The notes under the pieces: generated by a model
The model's database searches: none
Seen by the model: the letters and a program-made list of their open reading frames with translations, nothing else
What the model was told of the DNA's origin: nothing
Program-made: the position numbers and the translations under genes
Source of the DNA: Candidatus Bathyarchaeia archaeon
Lineage (GTDB): Archaea; Thermoproteota; Bathyarchaeia; 40CM-2-53-6
Assembly: GCA_049513715.1 (NCBI GenBank)
Contig: JBEKVV010000003.1
Coordinates: 32,001-96,000, forward strand
DNA: 64,000 nt
Direction: 5' to 3'
Shown: positions 30,931-54,290 of the stretch, one piece after another
Layout of the letters: every line of letters starts with the position of its first letter
Numbering within the stretch: position 1 is the stretch's first letter

Positions 30931-31737
30931 TTGGTTGTGCTTGTAATCGCGTCGCGACGCGATCCCGCTGCACAAAACATTGCCGCTGAATTGGCAAGAA
31001 TGAAGAATTTTCAAACCGTGGAAGGCACGGATGGAAGCCTTCTCCAGGCGGGGAATGTTCTTCTGAAGCACGTTGAATCCGATGGGATTTACACTGAGAA
31101 TTTGGGCGTCGATGTGAAACCTGACGCTGTTATCTTTGCTTCCCGACACCGAAGTGAAAGCAACGAGCCCACATTGACCGCGCACTGGACTGGAAATACG
31201 ACTTCGCGAGCTGATTTCGGTGGAAAGCCCAAGAGTCTTTCCTATACGGACCCTGCAAGACTTCGTACAGCTTTGCTGGCGTTGGATGAAGCTCGTGAGG
31301 CTCGGGGGTTGAATTACGCTGTGACGCTCGAAGCCACACATCATGGCCCAACGGAACTGGGCGTACCAACCTTGTTCGTTGAGTTGGGGAGCACGGAGAA
31401 AGAATGGAACGATAACAAGGCGGCTGAAGTAGTTGCTGAGGCAATTTGGAAGACAGCAACCGCACCTCTCCAAGGAAAAACCGCAGTGGGGTTTGGGGGA
31501 GGACACTACTGCAACAAACAGTGCATCGCAATACGAAATGAAGGGTACGCGTTTGGGCACATATTCTCCAAGTACTTCTTTCAAGAATACGATGAAGCCA
31601 CCGTGCAGCTTGCCTTCGAACGAACTATGGGCGACTGCCGGACAGCGGTTCTCGACTGGAAGGGGGTCCGCGGCTCAGAACGAAGCAAGCTACTTGAAAC
31701 GTTGAAGGGAATGGGCGTCGAGATTGTTCGAGTTTGA
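30931..31737 (+). CDS. dtdA: D-aminoacyl-tRNA deacylase (archaeal DTD2)
   Basis: SRHRS, LTAH.TGN, EATHHGPT, FVELGS, GFGGGHY. Confidence 0.94.
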   Translation: MVVLVIASRRDPAAQNIAAELARMKNFQTVEGTDGSLLQAGNVLLKHVESDGIYTENLGVDVKPDAVIFASRHRSESNEPTLTAHWTGNTTSRADFGGKPKSLSYTDPARLRTALLALDEAREARGLNYAVTLEATHHGPTELGVPTLFVELGSTEKEWNDNKAAEVVAEAIWKTATAPLQGKTAVGFGGGHYCNKQCIAIRNEGYAFGHIFSKYFFQEYDEATVQLAFERTMGDCRTAVLDWKGVRGSERSKLLETLKGMGVEIVRV

Positions 31738-32025
31738 TTCAAAGAACGCTCTTGGTTCGCTGAGTGTTTCGATGGGGCCAGTGCTGGGGTGGTAACGGTA
31801 GGATTTCTTGCATTGTTTGCAGCTGTAGCGGCCATGTATGCTTTCAGGGTTGAACTGGAGGGGTTGGTTGCAGGTTGGGCATTGAGCCTGGAACCCCAGC
31901 TCATTTTCCTGAATATCTAAAACCTGTTCAGCTAGGCTTTGGAGTAGTTCGCAGTTCCCGCCACATCTGCAACGGGGCGACGAATCAATCAGTTCTCGCA
32001 GTCGGTCTAATGCTTCTTGCTGCAT
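31690..32025 (-). CDS. Cys-rich zinc-ribbon protein
   Basis: CRCGGNC, CPTC, CKQC; start taken at ATG 32025; 3' overlap with dtdA. Confidence 0.55.
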   Translation of the reverse strand: MQQEALDRLRELIDSSPRCRCGGNCELLQSLAEQVLDIQENELGFQAQCPTCNQPLQFNPESIHGRYSCKQCKKSYRYHPSTGPIETLSEPRAFFESNSNNLDAHSLQRFK

Positions 32026-35056: not shown

Positions 35057-35238
35057 AACCGCAAAATGCTGTCTTAGTGATTTGACAGCATTAATCCCAG
35101 GCGAGATTTCGATCAAACTACGTTCGAAATGACTCGTTTTGTGTGTGAGTCTAGTGGTGCGAGCATCGTGATTTGAACCGTCAGTTCAGGCGTTATTTCG
35201 TGTGTGTGGGTATGCTGGTGCGTTGCTAAATTGGCATA

Positions 35239-35454
35239 TCATGGTTTCTCCACTCTCCGTTCCACCCTGACGTTGAGGTGGCCCGGATTGTCGGCTGCGA
35301 GTGGCGGCAAGAGGTGCGACAACAGTTGCTCTGCGCTGAGCCGGTGGACTATACCGGTTGGACCGGTTTGTGTCCAGCCGTTGTTCTCTTTGAGGTAGCT
35401 CCATGTCCGGCCACGTTTGGTTGTGATGTAAATCACGCAGTCAGTGTTCTTCAT
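35239..35454 (-). CDS. Small hypothetical protein
   Basis: ATG after GAGGT; lies between two repeat sites. Confidence 0.6.
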   Translation of the reverse strand: MKNTDCVIYITTKRGRTWSYLKENNGWTQTGPTGIVHRLSAEQLLSHLLPPLAADNPGHLNVRVERRVEKP

Positions 35455-35649
35455 GGCTTCTCCACTACCTCGAATTCCTTGTACTCCATGTCTTCCATCT
35501 TGTAGTCTATTCGGTTACAGGTATGCTGGTGCGCACACACACAATTACCGCATGAACTTCATTATGGTTGCTCTCATCGCTAGGCGCACGGGAAAAGGTG
35601 TTATTGATTGGTTCTTGAATTCATAGGTAGGACAGATGTGGTTCATCGG

Positions 35650-36039
35650 TTAGGACAAGCGCACCCTGACGAAGACATATTCGGATAGAGCCTTCAGTGG
35701 TTTTACTAGGTCTACCGGTCCTCCAGAAATGTGAACAATTGACTGGAGCGAATGGGAACTCGTCTTTTCGATTCGCACTTGGCGATCGTCTACATAAACA
35801 ACGCCAGACAGGGCGTCCATGATGCATTTTGCTACGTTGTCAACATCGACACGCCGTCGTTTTGTGTGGAAGTAGTCAACGAAGATGTGGACTTTCTGAT
35901 TCGATGCGGGGTGTGAGAAGGCACGTCGAGCTATTTTCCGGACGGTTCTCTTGTAGGCCTTTGCGAGTGGTGATCGGAAGGATATTGCACGACCCGGTAC
36001 GACGATACGATATTCCGGAATCGAATACGTGTATATCAC
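35650..36039 (-). CDS. rusA: RusA family Holliday junction resolvase
   Basis: DVDNVAKCIMDALSGVVYVDDRQV fits DxDNxxK..xDxL....xDDxQV. Confidence 0.88.
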   Translation of the reverse strand: MIYTYSIPEYRIVVPGRAISFRSPLAKAYKRTVRKIARRAFSHPASNQKVHIFVDYFHTKRRRVDVDNVAKCIMDALSGVVYVDDRQVRIEKTSSHSLQSIVHISGGPVDLVKPLKALSEYVFVRVRLS

Positions 36040-36053
36040 GAAACAAGCACCTT

Positions 36054-36299
36054 CTAGTAGAGAATGATCTTATCAACTTCCTTTCGCGGGAAGATCCAGA
36101 CATCAGCTTCAGGCTCAATATGTCTGCGGCGAAACCGCTTCAGTGGGCCCAAATCAGCCTCATCAGTTACGGTATTCAGCAAAACTACCGAATGCTTATT
36201 CTCGAAATACAGGAAGCCCGCTCTCTTGATATTGCCAGTGATAACCTCACAAGATCGCAGAAATGGCTTCCTTAATTGCCTCAGCTTTTTCTTGACCAT
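36054..36299 (-). CDS. Small basic hypothetical protein
   Basis: ATG after GAGGT; co-oriented directly upstream of rusA. Confidence 0.6.
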   Translation of the reverse strand: MVKKKLRQLRKPFLRSCEVITGNIKRAGFLYFENKHSVVLLNTVTDEADLGPLKRFRRRHIEPEADVWIFPRKEVDKIILY

Positions 36300-36970
36300 A
36301 TTGTTTCAACCTCGGTATGAGATAATAGCGCTTGTGTCAGTGTTTTCTGGGGGGGGTCTCGTGGTGCGGCCGGTCAAATTTGAACCGTTAGGTTTGGACG
36401 TGTTTTTTTTTGGGGGGGTGGGTATGCTGGTGCGAGCACCCGAATTTGAACCAGTCAGTCCGCTGGTCCGTTGGAGTCGAGGGCATAGAACAAACGGACG
36501 CATGAGAAATGACGTGAACAGCTTCCTCAATGGACCATCCGAGATCGGGCATAGATGCATCCCTATGGTCCCTATCATGAACGACACCCATAACGGGTAA
36601 CGAAACAACTAGGTAACGAAAACAAACGACCCAGTACCTGGGGTAGATGACATTTGCAGGTACACAGACCAACCAGCATCAAATCGTTCTGGACTGAAAA
36701 CTAATTCACCAAGAGTGGAGACAGCCCCCTAGAATACCAAGAACCGAAGAGAAAACCTTTGTTTGCCTATCGAATCCGATCCGAGACGCCGCCAGTGGAA
36801 CGCAAAATCACAATCCACCCACCTCCCGTTCCTCGATTATTCGCACCCAACAAACCAGAAGAAAACAAACTAGAAAACCCAACATTGATTCAAAGGTTAA
36901 AATAGCGGGCTTTTCATTTCAACCGCCGAAGAATCCAAGCACAGCTTTGTAGTTCGGGAGGGTTTGTACA

Positions 36971-45948: not shown

Positions 45949-47829
45949 ATGCCCCTACGAATCTTCCAGCGAGAAGGAGGACAGAAGCAATTGACAACGG
46001 ACATGAACATGGCCTGGCTTGTAGACGCCTCATATCGAGGAGGACAAGTGAATCTCAAGCTCATTCGGACAACTGATCTCGAACCTATTCAGTGGAGCGA
46101 TTCCAACTTCAAACCTTACTACCTAACTTATGATGAGCAGTACGGTGAACCTGTCAAGAAACTCAACCTTTTTGCAGGCAACGAAGTGAAACTTCAGAAG
46201 GTCTCCTACTATGAGAGACCGCCAAAGAATACCCAAGGCTGGGAGTTGGACATCGACCCGGCGCTCAGTTACGTTTACGATAGAGGACTTGTCTTCGGCG
46301 TTCCGCATTGTTTTGAGAACGGTGCTTGGTTGCCGCAAATTTCCATAGCCGACGAGCAGCTTACTCGATTTGAAGAGCTCTTCGGGGAAATCAAAGCTAA
46401 GGATCCTTTGAAGTTCGCTTTGGTGAAGGAGGCGTACGCTTATGCGGCGCAACCGGTTCCGCGAATCAAGCCGGAAAATCTTGGCCTTTCGGGTGGTTCT
46501 GAGGAGGATTACTACAACGCTTTCCTACTGAGCCGTATCGCGAACCTGCCAGTATCCAAAACCTACAGAAACTACTCCGTCTCCGAATGGATTCGCTCAA
46601 TGCTCTACACCTACTATCGAGCCCACAACATTCTCATTCCGACCCCTGAAGAGCTGAAACTTGGCGATACAAGGAAATACGTAACGGGCGCGCTCACGAT
46701 TGCCCCCGAGTCAGGGACCTATTTCAACATGTACGTGCTCGACTTCGAGTCCCTCTACCCAGGCTGCATTGACACTTTCAACCTTTCCTACGAAACTGTA
46801 CGGTGCCTCCACTCTGAATGCCAACGGAACCTAGTTCCGGGTCTAGATTACAATATCTGCACTAGGCGACGTGGAATCTACTCCGCCCTCACAGGAGCCC
46901 TACGCGACCTTCGCTTACGAGTCTTCAAACCTCTCACCAAAGCGAACCCGTCAAGTACAGACAAGAACATGGCCGCAGCCTCTCGCATTCTCAAACTGTT
47001 CCTAGTCTCATGTTTCGGAGTGACCGTTCGAATCAAAGGTCTAGCAAGCCCTCTTCTAGGTGAGGCGATCACAGCGTACGGACGTTACGTTTTGCAGTCG
47101 ACGTGGGATATGGCCAAGGACGCAGACCTCAAACCAAAGTACGGCGACACTGACTCGGTTTTTCTTGACAACCCGCTGGAGCAAGATGTGAGACAATTCA
47201 TCCAGGCGGTTAAGAACCGGTTCGACCTGCAATTGGCGTTTGACCGCGTTTACTCGGTTTGCGTTCTAAGTGCTGCCAAGAAAGCATACTTCGGCATCCT
47301 ACCAAACGGAGAGCCCGAAATCAAAGGGTTGTCGATTGCGAAATCCAACTCCCCCAGATTCTTCCAACGAACATTCCAAAACTGCCTCAACAGACTCTCC
47401 AAAGGGCGCCGCTCCGCCAGCGACTTTGAGTTAGCTAAGAAGCAACTGCCCGACGTGGTTGGGGGGGCGATTCACGAACTTCGAAACGGGAGTGTCGACT
47501 TGTCGGACCTTGAGTACCGAGTCGAACTGCGAGATGACCCACAAGAGAAAGCGCGATCGAAGACACTTCCGCAACCGTACCAAGCGGCCTGGCTTCTTTC
47601 AAAGGAAGGAAAGAAAATCTCCAGGGGAGAGGTTGTGGGTTTCGTTAAGGTTAGACCTTTCAAGGTTCAAGGAAGGCAGTATACCGTAAAACCGACTACA
47701 CAAACAGACCCGAGAGAGATCAATGTGAACGACTATGTTCGAAACCTCATCTCTTCGCTGTCCCAAACCTTCGAGCCCATGGGACTCAGCCTCGACATGC
47801 CCGAAACCAGCCTTTCGCGATTCCTGTAA
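45949..47829 (+). CDS. Family B DNA polymerase, PolB1-like, lacking the 3'-5' exonuclease domain
   Basis: DFESLYP, NLSYETVRC.H..C, LRDLR, YGDTDS, KKAY.G, IKGL; only about 245 aa before the polymerase core. Confidence 0.88.
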   Translation: MPLRIFQREGGQKQLTTDMNMAWLVDASYRGGQVNLKLIRTTDLEPIQWSDSNFKPYYLTYDEQYGEPVKKLNLFAGNEVKLQKVSYYERPPKNTQGWELDIDPALSYVYDRGLVFGVPHCFENGAWLPQISIADEQLTRFEELFGEIKAKDPLKFALVKEAYAYAAQPVPRIKPENLGLSGGSEEDYYNAFLLSRIANLPVSKTYRNYSVSEWIRSMLYTYYRAHNILIPTPEELKLGDTRKYVTGALTIAPESGTYFNMYVLDFESLYPGCIDTFNLSYETVRCLHSECQRNLVPGLDYNICTRRRGIYSALTGALRDLRLRVFKPLTKANPSSTDKNMAAASRILKLFLVSCFGVTVRIKGLASPLLGEAITAYGRYVLQSTWDMAKDADLKPKYGDTDSVFLDNPLEQDVRQFIQAVKNRFDLQLAFDRVYSVCVLSAAKKAYFGILPNGEPEIKGLSIAKSNSPRFFQRTFQNCLNRLSKGRRSASDFELAKKQLPDVVGGAIHELRNGSVDLSDLEYRVELRDDPQEKARSKTLPQPYQAAWLLSKEGKKISRGEVVGFVKVRPFKVQGRQYTVKPTTQTDPREINVNDYVRNLISSLSQTFEPMGLSLDMPETSLSRFL

Positions 47830-51294: not shown

Positions 51295-51518
51295 GGCATA
51301 TTCCTTCTCGATTTCCCACAGTGAACGCGCAGATGTTTACGCCTTTCTGAGTCTCAACGCCCCCTGTACACGGCAACAACCACGCCGAAAAACTCCGCTC
51401 GGTCTTCGCCTGCAGGGGGGTGTGCACACCGCCAGACCCAACAGGCCATCACACACACTAACAACAAACAACAGAACACAAATTGCCGTTTGTTTCTTGT
51501 GTGAGCGCACCAATGGAC

Positions 51519-51980
51519 TTACACACCCAGGAACGGTTGGTGGAGATTCAAGTTGTAGAGGCGGCGGTCGCTTTGAAGGAAGCCTATGGAACGCCAGAAT
51601 ACTGGGGCCAACTCGTTGGTGGGCAATACTTCTAGACTGACCTGCTCAGTCTTCGTTGCTTTTGCCTCTGCGATGAGGCGGGCGGCGAGGGCATGGCCTA
51701 CACCCTTGCGGCGGGAATCCGGATTCACAAAGAAGTCTTGGATTATTAGCATTCTGCCGAACTCCGCAGAAGGCAGATAGAATGCGAACGCCACGCCAAC
51801 GATCACTGTCTTCTCCCGTGCCACCAGGATCAGCCCCGATGATTCATTCTGCAACAGTTGGTCTACAGCCCAAGCGATCTTCTCATGGTTAGGCCTCAGT
51901 CCTTCAGAAGCGTGGTAGGTTGCTATCATTTGCTCGACCTCACTTCGATCAGTAGGAGATGGTCTCTCGATGACGATCAT
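51519..51980 (-). CDS. GNAT family N-acetyltransferase
   Basis: DFFV.P..RRKGVG, LEV...N..A..FW..IGF. Confidence 0.88.
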   Translation of the reverse strand: MIVIERPSPTDRSEVEQMIATYHASEGLRPNHEKIAWAVDQLLQNESSGLILVAREKTVIVGVAFAFYLPSAEFGRMLIIQDFFVNPDSRRKGVGHALAARLIAEAKATKTEQVSLEVLPTNELAPVFWRSIGFLQSDRRLYNLNLHQPFLGV

Positions 51981-52226
51981 GTGCTATGTCAGATTGTGAA
52001 AGGTCATCGGAACGGATTTAGTTTTTGTGTGTGTGGGTGTAGTGGTGCGCACACACACAAGAAAACGCTTGAACTGACGGAGCAAATTACGATGCCCGCA
52101 CCATCAGTGCACATACACGAAAACCGGCGTCGTTCATGTAATTTTGTGCGTATCCAAATTCCAACAGAACCGTAAAGTACATTTGTGTGCGATCGTGATG
52201 CATTTTCGGAGTTGTGTGTTTGAGCA

Positions 52227-52862
52227 ATGGGGAATGAAGTACTGGATGCCATTATGCAGCGACGCAGTATCTATCAGTTCAAGCCTGAGGCAGTCCCTAT
52301 TGAGAAGATTACTTCCATTTTGGAGGCGGGTCGTTGGGCTCCGTCATATGCGAATAGTCAGCCATGGGAATTCATTACTGTAACTGATAGCAAATTGAAG
52401 GAGGAGGTTGTCGAGATAGCGAAGGAAACTATGGCTGCGCATGCAGGAATAGAAGGAGCGCACGCAATCATCGCAACATGTGTGGATCCCGAGAAAGATC
52501 AATACCACTTCATTGAAGACGGTGCTGTAGCAACACAGAACATGGCTCTGGCAGCACATAGCCTGGGGCTAGCGACCTATTGGGTCGGGATATTGAGTTC
52601 TACGAACGATAGGAAATCAGTCGAGCATAGAATCAAGGAGGTCCTGAACATACCTGAAAGGATGCGCTTGATTTCTTTGTTGCCCGTGGGTGTGCCTGCA
52701 TATAGTGTAGAGAAGCAAAGAAAGCGGTTGGAGCAGATTTGCCACATTGACAAGTATGGCAGCAGACCATCAGGTGTGGGAGTAGAGGATCAGGGCAACA
52801 AGACAGAGATGGAAGCACCGAGACATGGAATGAGAGCACAATTGCCCACCACACCAACTTGA
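52227..52862 (+). CDS. Nitroreductase family protein
   Basis: RRSI..F, APS.ANSQPWEF, QNM.LAA.SLGL.T.W. Confidence 0.92.
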   Translation: MGNEVLDAIMQRRSIYQFKPEAVPIEKITSILEAGRWAPSYANSQPWEFITVTDSKLKEEVVEIAKETMAAHAGIEGAHAIIATCVDPEKDQYHFIEDGAVATQNMALAAHSLGLATYWVGILSSTNDRKSVEHRIKEVLNIPERMRLISLLPVGVPAYSVEKQRKRLEQICHIDKYGSRPSGVGVEDQGNKTEMEAPRHGMRAQLPTTPT

Positions 52863-53333
52863 TTGAGTGGATCATGAGCCAACGTCAGGAGAAGACTGGA
52901 CTTGGAACTTATTCTATGCAAGTCTAGCATTAAGGAGATTCATCGAAGACCTGAAGAAAGATAACAACTAGGTCCCTTCGAACGAGTGAGATCCGAAGCC
53001 TAGCAGACCTAGAGCCTGTATTAGAGGACGCGCATCCTTGGACAGTCTAAGAAGTCCTTTCCATCGTATTGACTGAAAGTTGGGTTCTTTGTTCTTTCCG
53101 GAATTGCCGAACATTCGACGCAACAAACCATGTCTCAATGGGCAGATTGAGAATGCTTACAAGCACGAGGGGAATTGCGATCCATACGAATCCTAGCCCC
53201 ACAAGTCCGAATCCTATAGGAAGCAAGACCGTTAGGTTTCCAGTCTCTTGGGGAGGGTACCAATGGTGCGCACCCACGAACCCACTTCCAACACCTGGGT
53301 CGCGCTTGAACAACAGCTACATCAAATTGCGGA

Positions 53334-53882
53334 CTAAATCATTATGGCGGCCGCGATTGCTGTCGTCCACAGTCCGTCTTTGTTGCCTTCCACCGATTGG
53401 CAAATGCTTCTGGTAGTAACCCTCTTGCCAGATATGTTCCATATCTCTTGCTTGATGTCCCAGGCGTTGTCGACGTCAAACGGCACACCGTATGTCGACG
53501 CGAGCATTGATGCAGCCAGATCTTCCGCATAGTCACCAGCTCTCTCCTGAGTCTGACCGTACGACTTGTGTTCAGAAAGGTAACCATACAAGGTCCGGTC
53601 ATTCGGCATTGCCATTCCTACGGATGTAGCGATCAACCTATTGGGTTCATTTGTGTCGATGCGACTCATCACGCAGAACAGGATCTGACCAGGTTTCAAT
53701 AGCGCCAAGCCCTCGTTCTTGGACAACACCGTGCAGTTTGGAGGCAAGATACTTGACACGTAAACTAGGTTGCAGGAGGCGATTCCCGCGTCGCGAAGAG
53801 CTAATTCGAAACTCGCCAATCTTTCTTTGTGAGTACCCACACCTTTTGTGAGGAATATCTTCTCAGGTATGTGAGCGTTCAT
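53334..53882 (-). CDS. pdaD: Pyruvoyl-dependent arginine decarboxylase
   Basis: SFELALRDAGI...NLV.VSSILPP self-cleavage site, YGYLSEH, WTT..AA. Confidence 0.92.
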   Translation of the reverse strand: MNAHIPEKIFLTKGVGTHKERLASFELALRDAGIASCNLVYVSSILPPNCTVLSKNEGLALLKPGQILFCVMSRIDTNEPNRLIATSVGMAMPNDRTLYGYLSEHKSYGQTQERAGDYAEDLAASMLASTYGVPFDVDNAWDIKQEIWNISGKRVTTRSICQSVEGNKDGLWTTAIAAAIMI

Positions 53883-54162
53883 CTGAAATTCTGGTCCACA
53901 GTGTTTCTCAGACATTCTTGAAGATTGTCATCGCCTATGATATGTCTCGCGCATTCAAGCAGTTTTCGTGTAGGTGCGCACCATTGATACCCCCCCAGAA
54001 CCACTAATACTCGAGAAGCAACGATGCCTTGGCGAGAATACACGGCGCCCACTTCTCACTTCTTTTTCCTACCTTTCATCCACGTGTGACGCGCTTTAGT
54101 TATTCGCGGAAATACTTCGAAAAGAAGCGATTGCCAGAGGTCGATTTTGTGTGTGGGTCCAG

Positions 54163-54290
54163 TGGTGCGGCCGCCGGGATTTGAACCCGGGCGTCTCCTC
54201 GCCTTTTTGGGGCGATCAGAAGCGTGGCAGGCTTACGTCAGCAGACCAATGTCGCTGTTCCCGTCCTAGACCAGGCTAGACTACGGCCGC
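54163..54290 (-). tRNA. tRNA-Gly(GCC) with two introns (29/30: 54233-54258; 45/46: 54193-54216), CCA encoded
   Basis: Removing 26- and 24-nt BHB-bounded inserts gives a 78-nt cloverleaf: GCGGCCG/CGGCCGC, stem GGAGC/GCTTC, loop CT-GCC-AC; CTTTAAAT box upstream. Confidence 0.92.

Follow-up and report, generated by a model that had tools for sequence, protein, structure and literature searches.

Casposons are the proposed source of CRISPR adaptation, yet they have been described as few, PolB-encoding elements. Small accessory genes held between short repeats and accumulated serially are also familiar from integrons, pdif modules and tycheposon tRNA islands. The A. boonei casposase needs the motif TCAAATC 8 bp before a 14–15-bp duplication and tolerates change or loss of the distal part (PMC6614799), while the duplication of the A. 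boonei casposon overlaps the 3′ end of tRNA-Pro and new insertions go next to the leader (PMC5137440, PMC6614799). In M. mazei, casposons show 14-bp duplications starting CGCA, tandem insertions and solo end repeats (PMC4779613, PMC6977970). An in vivo study found that artificial mini-casposons can be mobilised in trans, that a single target remains after excision, and that in one integration the duplication of the element took the place of the target (PMC10359463). The genes universal to family 2 are given in a review as PolB, HNH and two HTH genes (PMC9939771). Among the texts returned by a full-text literature search, no paper joined casposon with Bathyarchaeia or casposase with tRNA-Gly, and one review contained both casposon and Bathyarchaeota. 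At the level of titles and abstracts no natural non-autonomous or PolB-less casposon was found, and the supplements of Cas1 surveys (e.g., PMC9755687) could hold these proteins.

The window analysed here, a 64,000-nt stretch of a contig from Candidatus Bathyarchaeia archaeon, is archaeal by gene content (ribosomal proteins, ftsY, dtdA, secE and nusG). A pattern scan recovered the five minus-strand CGCACCA cores that an earlier note on this DNA had placed at 35155, 35216, 35527, 36362 and 36428, and GGTTCAAAT-N9-CGCACCA was exact in three of them, as had been stated; with up to two mismatches allowed, this pattern matched six times in the window against 0.06 expected. The resemblance of the copy at 35155 to a distant one was likewise reproduced, as an inverted pair with 52050–52103 that is 85% identical over 54 nt. 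The description of all five copies as tRNA 3′-end mimics stood for three and failed for those at 35527 and 35216, which have no correctly spaced T-loop box. These two carry a 14-mer identical to that of the copy at 36428 and would represent target-site duplications. Every copy borders a (CA)n or C-run arm, which was absent from the earlier description, and the array is one of about 30 site clusters in the genome.

Read from the secE side, on the minus strand throughout, the array begins with a leader (36435–36452), a tRNA-Gly T-loop mimic with TCAAATT at −15 to −9 from the adjoining 14-mer, the same spacing as that of the A. boonei casposase motif (PMC6614799). The leader is followed by the first, leader-proximal copy of a 14-bp core, CGCACCAGCATACC (36421–36434), a putative target-site duplication, and by a left terminal repeat of the C-run variant, CACCCCCCC plus an A run (36403–36420), which also occurs at both ends of an element with a casposase fragment in the relative G002 (L346). 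This repeat opens an 887-bp enzyme-less unit (35534–36420) lying between end repeats and identical 14-mers, a candidate non-autonomous mini-casposon. Inside it are an internal decoy target (36343–36386; leader 36369–36386, 14-mer 36355–36368) ending in a C-run end repeat that is likely the end of a nested element, and then two cargo genes, an 81-aa orphan ORF (36054–36299) and a rusA-like Holliday junction resolvase gene (35650–36039; PF05866, E 1.7e-11). The 81-aa ORF had no Pfam, NCBIfam or PHROG match and was not found in the 60 relatives searched, and rusA had no homologue at E ≤ 1e-8 in 104 genomes of the order. The unit closes with a right terminal repeat, AATTGTGTGTGTG (35534–35546), and a second copy of the 14-mer (35520–35533), identical to the first. 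Beyond it, a 297-bp segment without end repeats (35223–35519) carries a 71-aa ORF (35239–35454), the last of the intervening genes that the earlier note had listed, all of which are present, and runs to a third identical 14-mer (35209–35222), which together with a left terminal repeat, CACACACACGAAATAA, occupies 35193–35222 and whose leader is eroded or absent. A further internal decoy target (35135–35179; leader 35162–35179, 14-mer 35148–35161) and its own left terminal repeat complete the array. The pentamer TGAAC is frequent in the long linkers that precede leaders (35180–35190 in the window, and many others) and pairs with GTTCA of the leader as a short palindrome.

At its two ends the 887-bp unit carries end repeats of different variants, suggesting that insertion was followed by recombination or nesting. 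The tail of the 14-mer, GCATACC, is common (22 of 467 sites); the chance of one matched pair with this tail is about 5%, and that of three of five sharing is 0.8%. The 297-bp segment may have been captured without end repeats, may have lost them, or may lie between two 14-mers that are alike by chance. The 71-aa gene recurs in two relatives, G004 (94% identical) and G021 (77%), with no flanking sites in either.

Across the genome, a matrix scan found 96–99 such sites, or about 100, compared to 1 in the reversed sequence. The strict site pattern was present in 18 of 22 congeners, one of two other family members and two of 16 more distant genomes, kin genomes that are not independent samples. 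Among the 80 matches listed for the repeat in GTDB records, nearly all were titled Bathyarchaeia or Bathyarchaeota, the exceptions being two bacterial MAG contigs and one unclassified archaeon. Each site is modular, with a left part that is either a tRNA-like leader or TGTGTGTG, a core of CGCACCA plus seven more variable bases, and usually a right arm of CACACAC; where a leader is present, TCAAAT stands at −15 from the 14-bp core and a (CA)n terminal repeat comes after it, an arrangement that agrees with the published target geometry of family 2 casposases. When 264 distinct sites were selected by core and right arm only, leaving the T-loop box unused, 59 had the left TG arm, five were real tRNA-Gly ends and 200 were others. 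TCAAAT was found at −15 in 177 of these 200 and in none at six neighbouring offsets (−18 to −16 and −14 to −12), and the five T-stem pairs were kept in only four of the 177, in agreement with the earlier suggestion that the boxes are recognised by a protein rather than as RNA structure. Among the 52 leader sites in this genome, 22 lie 37–66 bp inside another site's arm, in tandem or inverted.

When the 646 ORFs located no more than 600 bp from a site were clustered, they fell into 551 families, of which 491 were singletons. With 15 members, a KaiC-like cargo family was the largest, and it is often tightly bracketed by sites; no other cargo is as common as this degenerate KaiC-like ATPase, whose gene often lies alone between two sites (G000:C4:201878-202726, C7:2509-3207 and 13 other loci). 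One small family among the clusters is Cas1-like. Modules that share 89–91% identity were found in more than one genome and end at a site on either side. The 14-mers of homologous modules often differ, which could be explained, by analogy, by the kind of target replacement seen in vivo with mini-casposons (PMC10359463). Before several decoy targets from different genomes lies a conserved stretch of about 180 bp (upstream of G000:C4:240376 and of C3:523966; L163, L195, L233 and L241).

The parent-tRNA search that had been proposed for these mimics led to an intron-containing tRNA-Gly(GCC) gene in the same window (54163–54290, minus strand), 18 kb from the array. This gene would be the natural target and is followed by a 14-mer (54156–54169) and a left terminal repeat. 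ARAGORN in default mode reported no tRNA in the window and, with introns allowed, found the gene and labelled it Val because of the introns. Judged by its GCGGCCG acceptor stem, its CTGCCAC loop and a 3′ end in common with the CCC and TCC genes, it appears to be Gly and not Val. Two of the three tRNA-Gly genes in the genome are followed by a 14-mer and an end repeat, and in relatives the same tRNA-Gly has an end repeat behind it in some genomes and none in others. Behind the tRNA-Gly of the window lies a second site cluster (51498–53995; cores at 51506+, 52043−, 52097+, 53264− and 53977+), around GNAT, nitroreductase-like and ArgDC genes. The variable region behind this tRNA-Gly also holds a gene for a 626-aa family B polymerase (45949–47829), which was not found in the fetched intervals of relatives and whose best models are archaeal PolB1-like, far below cut-off.

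The array lies inside a 5.1-kb island missing from all 20 relatives fetched, in which the dtdA–secE gap is 76–302 bp compared to 5,237 bp here, indicating that the genes were not vertically inherited at this locus; the layout also fits the serial accretion that the earlier note had envisaged. An 11-bp direct repeat, TTGATTCAAAG, bounds the island on the plus strand, its left copy over the dtdA stop codon (31734–31744) and its right copy before secE (36885–36895), and it is present as a single copy in the empty sites of several relatives. No casposase or integrase match was found in the 5.1-kb island. The 3′ end of dtdA has the look of an attachment site other than a tRNA, and several relatives keep short scars there. 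It is likely separate from the repeat sites, because a viral contig has a tyrosine integrase directly after the dtdA 3′ end (L286:1-260). An island with this unrelated 11-bp repeat likely explains the distance of the array from a tRNA. Within the island, 31881–31992 has a second genomic copy at C3:117935-118186 (80% over 255 bp), near another site cluster.

Of the 22 congeners, 13 had Pfam Cas1 matches, a single genome having as many as 11, a count that includes one CRISPR-type protein (G015) and one match below cut-off (G021). The genome studied here had no Pfam Cas1 match, and the window holds no casposase; tblastn found four casposase fragments in the genome, three of them in a site cluster or no more than 2 kb from one. 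With only these fragments kept, the array is probably dormant at present. Three site-rich, near-complete relatives (G012, G016 and G018) also had no Cas1 match. The full-length Cas1-solo proteins are about 405 aa, and their best PDB match is 6OPM, which we take to be the M. mazei casposase (residues 36–403, E = 4e-69, compared to at least 4e-21 for other Cas1 chains). The 6OPM alignment extends to residue 403/404, about 100 residues past the Pfam Cas1 domain, so that by sequence the proteins appear to have the C-terminal HTH extension of a casposase. E/H/D are intact in all 13 full-length solo proteins. In a midpoint-rooted tree of 17 rows, with partial solo proteins excluded, the solo proteins were separated from the four CRISPR-type Cas1 sequences included, and a search of 20 loci surrounding Cas1-solo genes gave no CRISPR-like array. 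Casposases that adjoin (CCG)n ends, of which there are three, group in a single clade (support 99/98); this subclade, with (CCG)n instead of (CA)n ends (L331:79-11058, L335:2591-9749 and L345:4925), suggests co-variation of enzyme and end. A sister clade of Cas1-solo genes (L342:14348-15574, L341:10277-11482 and L302) likewise shows no PolB in its vicinity and lacks these sites at its flanks, and an HTH-HEAT gene was found only beside one of its members. Relatives of the casposase were not found in viral contigs.

Within the site-linked clade, five of ten full-length casposases lie between matched 14-mers and end repeats (G013, G014 twice, G004 and G002), for four no matching pair lay within 20 kb, and the remaining one is interrupted at the end of its contig. 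Elements with an intact casposase and matched 14-mers measure 8,615 bp (G013), 10,965 bp (G014) and 7,144 bp (G004), and two further casposase elements could be read across two loci (~17.5 kb in G002 and 16.3 kb in G014). In a duplication test on 20 long loci, 18 of them fetched around casposase matches, an exact 14-mer partner was found upstream for eight of 17 right junctions compared to 1.3 expected (0 of 3000 draws). The same strict test on the present genome gave one of 12 compared to 0.5 expected, which is not significant, with a filter that missed the window pair too; a looser, earlier test on short loci gave seven of 71 compared to 2.2 expected. Most sites in this genome are without a matched partner. 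Across 19 matched 14-mer pairs, end repeats stood on both inner sides in 14, compared to one pair with neither, and rare end variants agree at the two ends of an individual element in three cases, (CCG)n in G014 and G004 and the C-run in G002. Other enzyme-less units with perfect duplications measure 1,027, 1,145, 2,800 and 2,918 bp. Reads of four DNA runs, possibly the source data, mapped on contigs only, gave an even depth, and the only joints seen were short-sided ones that other copies of the repeat can account for.

No PolB was found among 78 ORFs of at least 100 aa from casposase-bearing elements and 22 further neighbours, and blastp with the window PolB gave a single match, to a gene outside an element. 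HNH was present in one casposase-bearing element only, and HTH genes stand beside some casposases. The cargo of casposase-bearing elements includes TIR-domain, AIPR, DndB, HEPN, GmrSD and methyltransferase genes. A small gene is common to four PolB-less casposons (L329:8847-9176, L336:14563-14955, L332:12104-12469 and L339:9484-10323); it contains a DxD...H pattern, Atlas gave AEP-like primases as a lead (score 0.89), and it might stand in for PolB. Taken as a whole, the repeats likely derive from a casposon family without PolB that would insert at tRNA-Gly 3′ ends and at element-borne copies of them, and they likely represent its leaders, its 14-bp target-site duplications and its terminal repeats.

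Other origins of the repeats were weighed against this reading. Exact T-loop-to-CCA spacing and identity of the mimics to tRNA-Gly at −17 to −10 and −3 would fit 3′ ends of tRNA-Gly that successive integrations left behind as neutral remnants, or parts of a split tRNA, for which uniform decay had been named as the mark. On alignment of the sites the decay is not uniform: the mimic consensus departs from tRNA-Gly at −9 (T, 84%), −4 (T, 63%) and −2 (C, 95%) while the box is near-invariant, and this, with the rarity of a full T-stem, makes neutral remnants extremely unlikely. Rfam gave no match in 31000–64000, in a search that also missed intron-containing tRNAs. The mimics were also considered as the start of a split integrase gene, an idea that was rejected for want of an adjoining integrase ORF. 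The earlier note had favoured att-like sites in an integron-like layout, and att- or dif-like substrates of a tyrosine recombinase, as in integron- or pdif-like cassettes or tycheposon-like tRNA islands, would account for two-armed sites that can be read as an 11-6-11 dyad and for the alternating site orientations near tRNA-Gly; there are also 12 tyrosine-recombinase-like ORFs in the genome, and the integrase of a viral contig (L156) lies about 260 bp from a site. The enzymes, however, do not follow the sites. Tyrosine recombinases, sought with two Pfam-positive families and a custom HMM (the source of the 12 ORFs), occurred in only two of the site-containing loci scanned; the two families are found in eight and nine of 22 congeners and are missing from site-rich genomes, for 11 of the 12 recombinases the nearest site is over 9 kb away, and the remaining one is at a tRNA-Leu/Ser end. 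XerA had no match over cut-off in five of five genomes, no recombinase stands at the arrays, and integron-integrase models scored far below cut-off. The L156 lead pointed to a different att, at dtdA, and a crossover inside the 11-6-11 site was rejected, as the variable bases travelled with neither flank. A tyrosine recombinase also leaves the matched end-repeat variants around cas1 genes unexplained, and we regard it as very unlikely; with no tyrosine, serine or Y1 enzyme tracking the sites and Cas1-solo genes found between matched 14-bp duplications and end repeats, att sites of an integron-like recombinase were not supported. The two-armed site was not found in viral contigs. As a separate element family, a XerA-like integrase with an HTH-like gene is located at a tRNA-Leu/Ser 3′ end (L001; G000:C5:218588-220141) and also in G003 and G008, and relatives of this integrase were not found in viral contigs. 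That the units are mosaic, partly palindromic and dispersed recalls REP/BIME-like repeats spread by a Y1 transposase of the HUH class, or the scars that a large serine recombinase leaves, as noted in CPR bacteria, explanations whose probability we consider negligible given that PF01797 and PF07508 had no match and PF00239 none over cut-off (five of five genomes each).

A closer alternative accepts that the repeats are casposon-derived and holds that the cargo in the window was not moved by a casposase, old ends having been shuffled by homologous or illegitimate recombination and the genes having entered the island otherwise. The mismatched end variants on the 887-bp unit, the 71-aa gene without sites in two relatives, the few matched duplications here and the lack of an intact casposase here all point in this direction. 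Against it, in the 887-bp unit the leader, the identical 14-mers and the end repeats follow one another as expected, other enzyme-less units have perfect duplications, and common modules end at sites in different genomes, and we judge this alternative unlikely.

With the repeats read as casposon sites, the array appears casposon-derived rather than integron-like, and we infer that its units were mobile. Like family 2 casposons of M. mazei (tRNA-Leu, IR1), these elements have a Cas1-solo with a C-terminal extension, a 14-bp CGCA duplication at a tRNA 3′ end, an apparent dependence on upstream tRNA bases, tandem insertions and solo end repeats. They differ in their target, tRNA-Gly, in the absence of PolB from the casposase-bearing elements searched and the near absence of HNH, in short, simple (CA)n, C-run or (CCG)n end repeats, in about 100 sites per genome, in natural enzyme-less units that carry genes, and in elements that carry their own degenerate target. 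Set against what defines family 2, a stand-alone Cas1 without a CRISPR array was found (in relatives; fragments only here), as were terminal inverted repeats (variant-matched ends in three elements and an imperfect pair on the window unit) and a 14–15-bp target-site duplication at a tRNA 3′ end with an upstream T-loop motif, while PolB inside the element and the core HNH and two HTH genes were not. By analogy, the elements would work like family 2 casposons, yet they fall outside the family by its universal genes. The leader motif, the 14–15-bp duplication at a tRNA 3′ end and the low distal specificity are common to the A. boonei system, which differs, in the available descriptions, as a single PolB-encoding element at a real tRNA for which no decoy targets or dispersed arrays are mentioned. 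CRISPR arrays also have a leader, identical direct repeats (three 14-mers in the window) and inserts made by a Cas1 homologue, as would be the case here. CRISPR arrays are defined by 25–40-bp repeats, 30–45-bp spacers and cas1–cas2, whereas the repeats here are 14 bp and not palindromic, the inserts in the window are 297 and 887 bp and in general 0.3–17 kb and mostly end-repeat-bounded, the solo genes have no cas2 neighbours or CRISPR-like arrays around them, and there is no sign of guide RNAs. Relative to integrons, pdif modules and tycheposons, no IntI, Xer pair or serine integrase is linked to the sites, and the predicted chemistry is transposition with target duplication. What is new compared to known casposons is that these are PolB-less, non-autonomous and target-carrying.

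In the mechanism that we propose, TCAAAT at −15 and CGCA at +1 would be the bases recognised by a Cas1-solo casposase, which, if it follows the published family 2 mechanism, would join TGTGTG-3′ element ends 14 bp apart, duplicating the 14-mer. Leader–14-mer–CACAC would then be a left junction and TGTGTG–14-mer a right junction. Many elements have a target 37–66 bp inside one end, a spacing that is observed, and its presumed role as a decoy would allow later insertions to nest or stack wherever it is carried. The 887-bp unit would have been inserted at the leader by a casposase, likely supplied in trans. Accessory genes would likely accumulate in arrays with the layout of a CRISPR array on a larger scale. 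On this reading, a family-2-like casposase occurs without PolB, together with natural enzyme-less cargo units, element-borne decoy targets and leader–repeat–insert arrays, these last at dozens of loci. If it is right, Cas1 chemistry would be a main route of gene gain, for defence genes, KaiC-like ATPases and transporters, in an abundant archaeal genus of peat and soil. The target rules, mobilisation in trans and the step from transposon end to spacer are open to direct tests, given hundreds of natural targets and many intact casposases.

A bolder proposal, which we put forward as speculative and on balance doubtful, is Cas1-driven gene capture, in which PolB-less casposons spread portable leader-plus-repeat targets over the chromosomes of Bathyarchaeia and the casposase writes cargo leader-first, sometimes as DNA without end repeats, as in the 297-bp segment. 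If true, Cas1-driven gene capture would stand, as a living intermediate, between casposons and the acquisition of CRISPR spacers.
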